Positions 2,718 to 13,993 of a stretch of 46,871 nucleotides of DNA are shown here, piece after piece. The notes beneath the pieces are model-generated. The model saw nothing but the letters and a program-made list of their open reading frames with translations, was not told the origin of the DNA and ran no database searches. The translations under genes and the position numbers were made by a program. This DNA is from Candidatus Methylomirabilota bacterium (GTDB lineage Bacteria > Methylomirabilota > Methylomirabilia > Methylomirabilales > JACRGL01). Numbering within the stretch: position 1 is the first letter of the stretch; each line of letters opens with the position of its first letter. Where the stretch lies: assembly GCA_016212365.1 (NCBI GenBank), contig JACRGL010000111.1:1-46871 (forward strand), in the 5' to 3' direction.

Positions 2718-2735
2718 TAGCCGGGCCTTTTCAGG

Positions 2736-2767
2736 CATTGGGGGTCACATTGGGGGTCAGACTTAAA
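2736..2767. repeat. Tandem CATTGGGGGTCA x2 plus the left inverted repeat flanking the RAYT-like gene
   Basis: CATTGGGGGTCA at 2736-2747 is repeated exactly at 2748-2759. ATTGGGGGTCAGACTTAAA (2749-2767) is the reverse complement of 3740-3757 apart from one C in the C-run. It overlaps the stop codon of the 2763-3698 gene. Confidence 0.7.
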
Positions 2768-3698
2768 TCTTGATACTTTGGAGCGCCCTTTCTGCTTTTC
2801 TGACCTTTTGCTCCCACTCCGGTGCCTCCTTGAGATAACGACTCACCAAGGCTGGATCTCGCTGGATGTAACCCGCTACATCCTTCCCCTTTATCCCATA
2901 GCGGTGCGCCAATAGGACAAAAAGCCTCCGCGCCTGGGCTATGGGGAGGGCCTGGCTTCTCCCCCGGAGATCCCTGGGCTCGATGCCTGTTACCCCTTGC
3001 ACGGCTCGGGCCAGATCCGGAAGACGGATACCACTTGGGAGCCTCCGGGATTCCACCGCCTTCTGGGTCTTCCTCTGGACCTTCTCTACAAAGGCCTCAT
3101 CCCCCAGCACCCTCTGATCCACGGCCCGGTAGTACTGCTCCTGCCGTCCTTCCCCCAAAGCCTCCAGGGTAAAGGCCTCGTATTTCCGCCGAGCCCGAGA
3201 TTTGTTCTCTGAGAAAGTCCATAGCACCAGCTCTGTCTCCACCGGATCATTGAGGTATAAGCCCAGGTACGCCCGGTGACTGCTCCAAGGGTAATCCTTC
3301 GGATCTTTGACGATTTTGGCTCGAACCGGGTTTAGATGGATGTATCGAACCAGCTCCAGAAGATAGGCGTCCCGGTGGCAGAGGATGGCCTTGTAGCGGC
3401 CTTGGAACAGATGGCCGATGGTCTGGTATCTTCGGTTATAGTAGCCGGTGTAGCTCTGCTGGAGGCCCTGGAGGATCTTGGACAGGGGAACCTCACCGGT
3501 CTCTAAGAGGAGGTGCACATGGTTTTCCATGAGGGTGTAGGCATAGAGGGTAAAGCTATAGCGGTTCCGATAGAGCGAAAGGAGGGTAAGGTATTTCCGG
3601 AAGTCGGCCTCCCTGTGGAAGATCTTCTGTTTCTGATTGCCCCGGGCGATGACATGATAGAAGGCGCCTGGGTATTCAAGACGCGGTTTTCGGGCCAT
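2763..3698 (-). CDS. HUH/Y1 tyrosine transposase-like protein (IS200/RAYT family) with a C-terminal DnaA-domain-IV-like HTH
   Basis: Start taken at MARKPRLEYPGAFYHV (ATG 3698); the track ORF extends to a TTG at 3737. HUH motif ENHVHLLLE and catalytic Tyr motif RYIHLNPVRA are present. The C-terminus IEPRDLRGRSQALPIAQARRLFVLLAHRYGIKGKDVAGYIQRDPALVSRYL follows the Bac_DnaA_C pattern. Confidence 0.85.
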   Translation of the reverse strand: MARKPRLEYPGAFYHVIARGNQKQKIFHREADFRKYLTLLSLYRNRYSFTLYAYTLMENHVHLLLETGEVPLSKILQGLQQSYTGYYNRRYQTIGHLFQGRYKAILCHRDAYLLELVRYIHLNPVRAKIVKDPKDYPWSSHRAYLGLYLNDPVETELVLWTFSENKSRARRKYEAFTLEALGEGRQEQYYRAVDQRVLGDEAFVEKVQRKTQKAVESRRLPSGIRLPDLARAVQGVTGIEPRDLRGRSQALPIAQARRLFVLLAHRYGIKGKDVAGYIQRDPALVSRYLKEAPEWEQKVRKAERALQSIKI

Positions 3699-3739
3699 GG
3701 TGAAACACAGAATAGCATCGGGAGGAAAAGGTGTCAAGT

Positions 3740-3848
3740 TTTAAGTCTGACCCCAATTTACTTGCATACATACCACGCCAGGCTATATGGCACCCCATTT
3801 GCATATATCAATTTTCGACTTGCCAGGGAAAACCCCGCTGGGGTCAGG
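3740..3848. repeat. Right-flank inverted copies of the GGGGTCA motif (REPIN-like pair)
   Basis: TTTAAGTCTGACCCCAAT at 3740-3757 is the inverted partner of 2749-2767. CTGACCCCA at 3748-3756 also pairs with TGGGGTCAG at 3840-3848, a 9-bp inverted repeat with an 83-nt spacer. Confidence 0.55.
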
Positions 3849-3894
3849 TAGTAAGAGGTGATTGGAAGGCCTTTTTAATACGGGAGGATAAAAG

Positions 3895-4458
3895 ATGAAG
3901 GAGTTATGGTTTCGCCGTCGAAATTTCTTGGTCAGGCCCTCTTTCCAGATCAAGTACGCCGTTTATATTGTCTCCTTTCTCTTCATCTACACATTCCTCC
4001 TGGGCTTCCTCATCTTTTACCCCCTCCAGCAGGCCCTGCAAGGGAGCTCTTCCCTAGAGGAACGGGTCTTGATCTCCCGTGAAGTCCTGATCCTTCATAA
4101 ACGGCTCTGGCCCTGGTTCTTCGCGGTCATCCTCCTGGTGGGTGTGCACAGCATCCTCACCACCCACCGCATTGCCGGGCCGCTATTTCGGGTGGAGACC
4201 ACCCTACGCCGGATAATCCAGGGGGATTTCTCTCAGAGGATAAAGCTCCGCCGGCACGACGAGTTTCTGGAATTCGAGGAATTGATAAATCAGCTGGCGG
4301 AGCGGCTGGAGGCATCCACCAGGGAAAGCCAAATAGCCCAGGCAGGGATCAAAGAGGAAATAAAAGAGTTCTGTGCCTTAGTTCTGAAGGACCCACTGGC
4401 AGGCCAGGAACTGAAATCCCGGGCCAGCATCCTGGCCTCTGCCCTTAACAGAATCTAA
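3895..4458 (+). CDS. Small membrane protein with two TM helices and a HAMP-like linker, no output domain
   Basis: 187 aa with RBS GGGAGG. Hydrophobic segments are YAVYIVSFLFIYTFLLGFLIFYP and WPWFFAVILLVGVHSIL. They are followed by THRIAGPLFRVETTLRRIIQGDFSQRIKLRRHDEFLEFEELINQLAERLE, a HAMP-type amphipathic pattern. Confidence 0.7.
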   Translation: MKELWFRRRNFLVRPSFQIKYAVYIVSFLFIYTFLLGFLIFYPLQQALQGSSSLEERVLISREVLILHKRLWPWFFAVILLVGVHSILTTHRIAGPLFRVETTLRRIIQGDFSQRIKLRRHDEFLEFEELINQLAERLEASTRESQIAQAGIKEEIKEFCALVLKDPLAGQELKSRASILASALNRI

Positions 4459-13567: not shown

Positions 13568-13993
13568 TCACAACAACTTAGAAGGCCCCACGATGGCAGA
13601 GCAGACGTTGGAGAGTTCCGTTATAAGGACCACCAGGATGTCATCTACCGAAACTATTCCTACCACCCTGCCCTTCCCATCCACGATGGGGAGGCGCCGG
13701 ATGCGGGCCTCGGCCATAGCTCGGGCCGCCCTTAAAAGGATCTCGTCCTCTTTCGCTACGACCACATTGGGGGTCATAACCTGCTTCAACCTCGTGGCCT
13801 TGGGATCGAGCCCCCTTGCCAACACCGATACCACGATGTCCCTGTCGGTGAGGATGCCAAGGGGTCTCTTTTCTTCGTCCAAGACCAGGATACACCCTAC
13901 CCCCCTCTCCCTCATAAACTTCGCAGCCTTGGCCACTTTATCCTCTGGCCGGAGCGCTACCACCTTCTTATTCATAATGCTACTCATCCTCAT
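13568..13993 (-). CDS. CBS domain pair protein
   Basis: Start taken at ATG 13993 (MRMSSIMNKKVVAL), with RBS GGGGAGGG 6 nt upstream. There are two CBS repeats (...GVGCILVLDEEKRPLGILTDRDIV... and ...IRRLPIVDGKGRVVGIVSVDDIL...). Confidence 0.85.
   Translation of the reverse strand: MRMSSIMNKKVVALRPEDKVAKAAKFMRERGVGCILVLDEEKRPLGILTDRDIVVSVLARGLDPKATRLKQVMTPNVVVAKEDEILLRAARAMAEARIRRLPIVDGKGRVVGIVSVDDILVVLITELSNVCSAIVGPSKLL

Follow-up and report, generated by a model that had tools for sequence, protein, structure and literature searches.

The cassette behind dnaA and its gene

The window analysed here is a stretch of 46,871 nucleotides (46.9 kb) from Methylomirabilota, the NC10 phylum. Behind its dnaA gene lies an insertion sequence (IS)-like cassette of about 1.0 kb, and we found that this cassette is a TIRtron, a unit in which one gene, called TIRYT, stands between terminal inverted repeats (TIRs) of 27-31 bp. 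The TIRYT protein consists of a HUH/Tyr nuclease-ligase core like that of TnpAREP and IS608 TnpA, a helical linker and a domain with the fold of DnaA domain IV. The features of the locus are collected in Table 1.

Table 1. Features of the TIRtron and its surroundings, in window coordinates (MAG, metagenome-assembled genome; HTH, helix-turn-helix)
Feature	Position	Strand	Remark
uvrA end, then intergenic region, then dnaA	dnaA 1374-2717		window is an NC10 MAG contig
Exact tandem doublet, CATTGGGGGTCA x2	2736-2759	+	6 nt of flank plus first TIR-tip bases, period 12
TIR 3' of gene, ATTGGGGGTCAGACTTAAATCTTGATACTTT	2749-2779	+	overlaps stop codon
TIRYT gene, 311 aa (Y1/HUH transposase, helical linker, DnaA-domain-IV-like HTH)	2763-3698	minus	
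C-terminal DnaA-domain-IV-like HTH, residues 223-311	2766-3032	minus	
Y1_Tnp catalytic core, residues 14-121	3336-3659	minus	Pfam, invariant columns, fold
Catalytic Tyr119	3342-3344	minus	
HUH motif	3513-3521	minus	
Sigma-70-like promoter, TTGACA-17-(TG)TATTCT	3709-3737	minus	-35 inside upstream TIR
TIR 5' of gene, AATTGGGGTCAGACTTAAAACTTGACACCTT on minus strand	3728-3758	minus	ends 29 nt before ATG
Solitary extra GGGGTCAG	3840-3847	+	85 nt outside 5' TIR, facing 5' TIR

The open reading frame (ORF) of the TIRYT gene lies 45 bp past dnaA on the minus strand and has its N-terminus, MARKPR, at the ATG at 3698; an alternative TTG at 3737 would lengthen it, and the homologues all begin at the ATG. 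Pfam Y1_Tnp matched residues 14-121 with E=1.6e-13. Invariance and domain counts were taken from an alignment of 62 homologues, in which H60 and H62 of the HUH motif and Y119-x3-N123-P124 are invariant; the class 2 tyrosine signature Y---NP is present as Y119-I-H-L-N123-P124. A first-pass annotation of the stretch had called the protein a RAYT-like Y1 transposase, and these results support a Y1/HUH transposase of the RAYT-related branch. The AlphaFold2 (AF2) model of the whole protein had a pLDDT of 83, and its N-terminal half was closest in fold to TnpAREP (4er8; E=2e-6, TM 0.74), with matches also to the TnpA proteins of IS608 and ISDra2. Profile and fold searches were needed, as the protein's own sequence, searched against PDB, matched TnpAREP only marginally (E=0.11). 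A protein search recovered at least 8000 homologues of about 310 aa, many with precomputed PF01797 and PF08299 assignments. The window carries an intact ORF, and conservation in the family is strong along the full length.

We then considered the C-terminal part of the protein, for which a likeness to DnaA domain IV had been proposed. Pfam Bac_DnaA_C (PF08299) matched residues 230-286 with E=1.6e-4 and 22.1 bits, below its gathering threshold of 31.5 bits, and 33 of the 62 homologues matched the same model at E<1e-3 (best 3.5e-8). When the family profile was compared with PDB, the sole match was E. coli DnaA domain IV (1j1v, E=0.0023), and hhalign against a DnaA alignment brought 45 columns into register (E=1.4e-4). 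Residues 223-311 modelled alone by AF2 reached a pLDDT of 92.5; the top six fold matches in PDB were all DnaA domain IV (3pvp, 1j1v and 8btg; TM 0.73-0.76 over 87-90 residues), while other HTH proteins ranked next with TM of at most 0.44. As judged from the predicted structure, the assignment of this domain to the DnaA domain IV fold is sound, and the proposed likeness was confirmed at the level of fold, with the PF08299 match remaining sub-threshold.

The residues of E. coli DnaA (1j1v) that read the DnaA box are D433-H434-T435..H439. The base-reading stretch is KDHTTVLH in the DnaA of the window and RDPALVSRY in its TIRYT, with KDPAxVTRY as the family consensus; the contact residues D-H-T-T..H of DnaA thus have D-P-A-L..R as their TIRYT counterpart. 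With DnaA domain IV (1j1v, 3pvp) the TIRYT protein shares the whole-domain fold and a weak, consistent profile similarity; unlike DnaA, it has no AAA+ module and no association with DnaA boxes.

Terminal inverted repeats and the TIRtron family

The gene had been described as bracketed by inverted GGGGTCA(G) repeats, and it is: the arms at 2753-2779 and 3728-3754 form an inverted repeat of 27 nt with 89% identity (24/27), and by eye 2749-2779 can be paired with 3728-3758, a length of about 31 nt. The tandem doublet on the dnaA side was given correctly in the first-pass annotation and is exact, whereas the annotation had made the inverted repeat around the gene too short. The second CATTGGGGGTCA copy of the doublet continues into the 27-nt arm at 2753-2779. 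Both TIR ends are tipped with TGGGGTCAG, and GGGGTCAG, at 2753-2760 (plus strand) and 3747-3754 (minus strand), fits the published motif GGGGWSAS exactly. Allowing up to 3 mismatches, the 19-mer occurs twice in the window, against 0.02 expected.

These repeats are terminal inverted repeats and not REPs (repetitive extragenic palindromes). In the 46.9-kb window GGGGTCAG is not enriched (6 copies against 4.3 expected), and TGGGGGTCA has 3 copies against 0.9 expected; at these counts, the supposed related copies at 13764 and 31253 are at chance level. No hairpin potential was found at the TIR ends, where the folds of single-stranded DNA (ssDNA) gave z=-0.11 and +0.38. The solitary GGGGTCAG at 3840, earlier paired with the TIR as a REPIN-like element, gives only a 9-bp stem with a 99-nt loop, whose fold does not improve on shuffles (z=-0.21); this copy is possibly a relic tip or a chance occurrence. 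Across 85 TIRtron ends, inverted extra tips near the TIRs numbered 5 against 1.4 expected. A REP/REPIN organisation, the interpretation of the first-pass annotation, was rejected because of the chance-level motif counts in the window and the insignificant ssDNA folds.

The domain combination, for which the first-pass annotation knew of no described function, is an architecture already in the literature, namely that of TnpAY1 subclass 2.1, or TIRYT (PMC6006769, PMC3733652). Di Nocera, De Gregorio and Rocco (2013, BMC Genomics 14:522; PMC3733652) described RAYT-like genes flanked by TIRs that share GGGGWSAS, and coined the names TIRYTs for the genes and TIRtrons for the cassettes. Quentin, Siguier, Chandler and Fichant (2018, BMC Genomics 19:475; PMC6006769) assigned the majority of TIRYTs to TnpAY1 subclass 2.1, reported this subclass in 14.9% of strains, described its C-terminus as Bac_DnaA_C-, HTH_23- or HTH_28-like, and treated it as the same group that Bertels et al. 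2017 (PMC5581495) call RAYT group 1. On shared features, the protein in the window would belong to this subclass and group. NC10/Methylomirabilota is not among the host examples of Di Nocera et al. The likeness to the published TIRtrons extends to TIRs in place of REP hairpins around a RAYT-like Y1 gene, to GGGGWSAS, to the overlap of one arm with the 3' end of the ORF and to extra TIR copies in some genomes; in nothing essential does the cassette in the window differ from them. With group 2.1.2 of the subclass it shares the Y---NP signature, the length of about 310 aa, the Bac_DnaA_C-like extension, the REP-free surroundings and a wide, patchy taxonomic distribution.

To describe the layout of the family, we used a sample of 80 genomic loci from many phyla whose homologues are 34-66% identical, 63 of them evaluable for layout. 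A flanking inverted repeat scoring at least 14 was present at 56 of the 63 loci and at 0 of 381 pseudo-gene controls, and 39 of the 56 loci with good TIRs carried GGGGTCAG. The tip consensus of the related loci is (A/T)TG-GGGTCAG-R-C-T-T, i.e. (A/T)TGGGGTCAG-R-C. Upstream of the gene, the median distance in these loci from the end of the arm to the ATG is 28 nt; on the downstream side, arm and stop codon overlap.

Two other known systems share the catalytic part. E. coli TnpAREP (RAYT group 2; 4er8) has the same catalytic fold, with HUH and Y---NP, and is also a single gene with inverted copies of its presumed substrate on either side. However, TnpAREP has 165 aa and no HTH domain, and it recognises GTAG-tagged REP hairpins in ssDNA, with REPs present in hundreds per genome, whereas the cassette in the window has plain, hairpin-free TIRs and the added DnaA-like domain. 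The TnpA proteins of the IS200/IS605 family (IS608, ISDra2) share the Y1 HUH core, and these elements also show no target-site duplication and have derivatives resembling miniature inverted-repeat transposable elements (MITEs). In contrast, IS200/IS605 ends are asymmetric subterminal hairpins without TIRs, the window cassette has TIRs and no hairpins, and IS200/IS605 TnpA lacks a C-terminal HTH.

A rival reading is that the cassette is a classical REPtron, a RAYT gene flanked by the REP/REPIN sequences that it spreads through the genome. The top NCBIfam model is indeed REP_Tyr_transpos (NF047646), but its 76.1 bits lie under the 80-bit cut-off; transpos_IS200 (NF033573) also failed, with 13.9 bits against a cut-off of 55. 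Several sources name the homologues "REP element-mobilizing transposase RayT", and a short G-rich motif does stand inverted on both sides of the gene, but the flanking repeats have neither hairpin potential nor a GTAG-type tag, and the motif is not enriched in the 46.9 kb. Moreover, no REPs were found near subclass 2.1 genes (PMC6006769). We regard the REPtron as very improbable.

The upstream TIR also appears to carry a promoter. On the minus strand of the window, the -35 hexamer TTGACA is at 3737-3732 and the hexamer of an extended -10 element (TGnTATTCT) at 3714-3709, ending 10 nt before the ATG. A promoter match of at least 9/12 was found in 28 of 61 loci, compared with 5% of controls; in 26 of the 28 loci, 5-10 nt separate the end of the -10 element from the ATG, and the -35 begins at a distance of 9-18 nt from the tip. 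This arrangement predicts a near-leaderless mRNA transcribed from a TIR-embedded promoter, and because the -35 lies inside the TIR, a protein bound there could autoregulate its gene. The accessible text of Di Nocera et al. (PMC3733652) and Quentin et al. (PMC6006769) does not mention a TIR-embedded leaderless promoter.

Signs of mobility, and tip duplications, in the family

We searched metagenome contigs with a relaxed 21-nt TIR pattern, which matched at least 120 contigs and found related TIR types in other organisms. A TIRYT gene lay just inside the TIR in 36 matches and was missing in 78. Among the matches were 26 TIR-bounded elements of 53-248 bp without a gene (including L090, L094, L098, L113 with two copies, L114, L118, L126, L129, L138, L145, L153, L184, L192 and others). 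Members of the dominant gene-less family, of 97 bp, have at least 11 different flanks, and one contig holds two of them. Conservation of the 97-bp elements continues for about 9 nt (GAAAAGCCT) beyond the left tip; these bases may be element sequence or mark a preferred target. On three contigs (L087, L132, L169), a GGGGTCAGAC-type tip precedes, by about 100 nt, a different tip of the GGGGTCAGGC or GGGGGCAGGT type that points the same way, and L169 has a 36-nt tandem repeat of its first tip; these contigs may hold adjacent or nested TIR elements.

An all-against-all comparison revealed copies of a TIRtron of about 1,005 bp, with 85-96% identity, at 10 or more sites whose flanks are unrelated (L017, L197, L161, L180, L203, L154, L088, L099, L117, L176). 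Homology within this family ends at the TG|GGGTCAG tips, and no target-site duplications were seen by eye either there or at the MITE-like elements. The first-pass annotation had reasoned that multiple copies of the whole cassette in relatives would speak for an ordinary IS, and at the level of the family this is what was found. The gene-less derivatives and the 1-kb family, both in many unrelated flanks, argue for mobility of the family, and the comparison of sequences suggests that the dispersal of the whole TIRtron cassette is IS-like. The patchy spread across many phyla also fits horizontal movement.

An alternative is that the copy in the window is domesticated or decaying and immobile, kept because it serves the host, for instance in DNA-end processing or in regulation, while its TIRs act only as binding or regulatory sites or persist as relics. 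RAYT group 1 genes are mostly low-copy, with 1.3-1.8 per replicon and 6.3% with near-identical duplicates, but the same group is the largest and most IS-like of the RAYTs and includes plasmid-borne genes (PMC5581495). Copies within one genome are divergent (e.g. L001/L021), the arms in the window have 3 mismatches in 27 nt, the ORF is intact in a family conserved at full length, and the TIR-internal promoter would suit autoregulation. These points are consistent with domestication; the closely similar TIR-to-TIR units in many unrelated flanks, the gene-less MITE-like derivatives and the patchy distribution argue against it, and we consider this alternative unlikely.

We further found that the outer edges of the TIRs are often duplicated in tandem. 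A near-complete tandem duplication with a period of 8-29 nt was present at 27 of 111 ends (25 of 60 loci), i.e. at 24% of TIRtron ends, compared with 0.34% of random positions, an enrichment of about 70-fold. The duplicated unit consists of 4-14 nt of unique flank and 0-19 nt of the TIR tip, the latter most often about 0-1 or 7 nt. Such duplications occur at L001, L003, L007, L009, L011, L012, L018, L019, L024, L027, L030, L036, L038, L040, L042, L047, L049, L068, L070, L072 and other loci, and in the recently diverged family of about 1,005 bp they were present at 8 or more of 20 ends. In addition, direct extra copies of the tip within 200 nt outside the TIRs numbered 14 against 1.4 expected, a ten-fold excess. 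The CATTGGGGGTCA doublet of the window is one instance of this family-wide pattern. The flank that is duplicated is not the same at both ends of one element, so the duplications arise locally. Reiteration of REP clusters along with flanking DNA is described in the accessible parts of Di Nocera et al. (PMC3733652); a footprint in which flank and tip are duplicated is not described in those parts or in the accessible text of Quentin et al. (PMC6006769). From their geometry, the duplications may be the footprint of how the enzyme nicks and rejoins DNA. The TIR promoter with its leaderless mRNA, the gene-less derivatives with the 1-kb family, and the tip duplications may each be new to the description of TIRtrons.

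Proposed mechanism and the position beside dnaA

The part of the DnaA-like domain that would contact bases varies with the TIR tip. In loci with the tip GGGGTCAG the recognition helix starts with [KR]-D; with the tip GTGTCAG it starts with C-H/S, with GGGTCAAA it starts with I-S/T, and with GGGTCAGGT it starts with other residues (variant-tip loci L045, L055, L065, L068; L056, L079; L078, L080). This covariation suggests that the HTH reads the TIR tip.

Taken together, we consider it probable that the cassette is a TIRtron with a tip-reading mechanism and a TIR promoter, and that its position is incidental. In the mechanism that we infer, the HTH domain would bind the conserved double-stranded TIR tip rather than DnaA boxes, and this binding would bring the HUH/Tyr core into place for nicking and rejoining DNA at the tips or immediately outside them. 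The unit from TIR to TIR would then move without target-site duplication, and an occasional aberrant nick, followed by fill-in and rejoining, would leave duplications of flank and tip such as the CATTGGGGGTCA doublet. Transcription would start from the TIR-embedded promoter and give a leaderless mRNA, possibly under autoregulation. A stronger version, which we find possible though doubtful, is that TIRtrons are a mechanistically distinct type of transposon, in which a DnaA-IV-like HTH reads double-stranded tips on behalf of an HUH/Tyr nuclease and the duplications are cleavage footprints. In this model one cut would fall a few nt outside the tip and the other at the tip or about 7 nt inside it.

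Several points weigh against the reading that we prefer. Y1 enzymes act on single strands through hairpin recognition, and the TIR ends are hairpin-free. Replication slippage at a protein-bound tip would give identical duplications, which could not be distinguished from those of staggered nicking and fill-in. The covariation of helix and tip is, in these sequences, confounded by phylogeny, because each tip variant is one clade. The exact 24-nt TIR of the window had 0 matches in the metagenome contigs, and the window copy, with arms matching at 24/27 and a single copy in 46.9 kb, may be inactive or old. Neither a clean empty site nor a target could be defined, as the closest dnaA relative diverges at 2710 and two relatives with 69% dnaA identity are too distant; with no empty site recovered, insertion at the window site is not directly shown. 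The mechanism is deduced from sequence because the accessible text of PMC3733652 and PMC6006769 reports no demonstration of TIRYT transposition, DNA binding or cleavage.

With at least 8000 cluster representatives, the TIRYT family is among the commonest types of Y1 transposase in environmental bacteria, and it is biochemically uncharacterised. Its regularities, namely the fixed TIR layout, the TIR promoter, the MITE-like derivatives, the tip duplications and the covariation of helix and tip, offer testable handles on an HUH enzyme that works with TIRs instead of hairpins. We regard these family-level footprints as a modest lead and the locus itself as of low interest.

The first-pass annotation had suggested that the DnaA-like domain targets DNA near the origin or resembling DnaA boxes; such targeting would account for the cassette's place beside dnaA. 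The C-terminal fold is truly that of DnaA domain IV, the gene lies about 1.5 kb from a cluster of DnaA boxes, and Quentin et al. speculated that the C-terminal domain might target the replication fork (PMC6006769). The same authors noted, however, that GGGG[AT][CG]A[CG] is unlike the DnaA box (PMC6006769). No DnaA boxes were found at 2736-3848. The base-contact motif DHTT..H is not conserved in TIRYT. Furthermore, dnaA was found in the flanks of 0 of the 80 homologous loci (one locus had a 29%-identical AAA+ match), and no TIRYT gene follows dnaA in three NC10 relatives, with dnaA identities of 81%, 69% and 69%, so the adjacency in the window is not conserved. Origin or DnaA-box targeting was rejected because of the missing synteny, the replaced contact residues and the box-free cassette; as an explanation of the dnaA adjacency it is largely refuted and very improbable. 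The position 45 bp behind dnaA appears to be a coincidence, that is, an incidental insertion. The cassette adds a further copy to a family that is very abundant and already described, and its adjacency to dnaA is uninformative on replication.

The box cluster comprises six DnaA boxes at 965-1267 between uvrA and dnaA (TTWTNCACA, 1.0 expected), two of them forming an inverted pair at 1236-1255, and this region is likely oriC or the dnaA promoter region. On the other side of dnaA, we compared window positions 2718-4458 with the dnaA loci of NC10 relatives (L081-L085). In the window, dnaA is followed by the TIRtron and then by a gene for a HAMP-domain membrane protein of 187 aa; in the relatives examined the next gene is different each time, being an H+-translocating pyrophosphatase (H+-PPase) gene, CsgG with a toxin-antitoxin pair (PIN/RHH), or a gene of the metallo-beta-lactamase fold. 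In the closest dnaA relative (L081, 81%), nucleotide homology ends at window position 2710 and the H+-PPase gene comes next. The spot downstream of dnaA is a variable region in the NC10 lineage. A second, outer inverted repeat was seen around the cassette at 2688-2704 and 3925-3941 (GAGGGCCTGACTAAGAA / TTCTTGGTCAGGCCCTC, 16/17 nt), with one arm inside dnaA at its 3' end and the other inside the HAMP-domain gene at its 5' end. Part of this repeat is GTCAGGCC, similar to a TIR tip but facing outward, and any such pair of 17-mers occurred in about 0.3% of shuffles.

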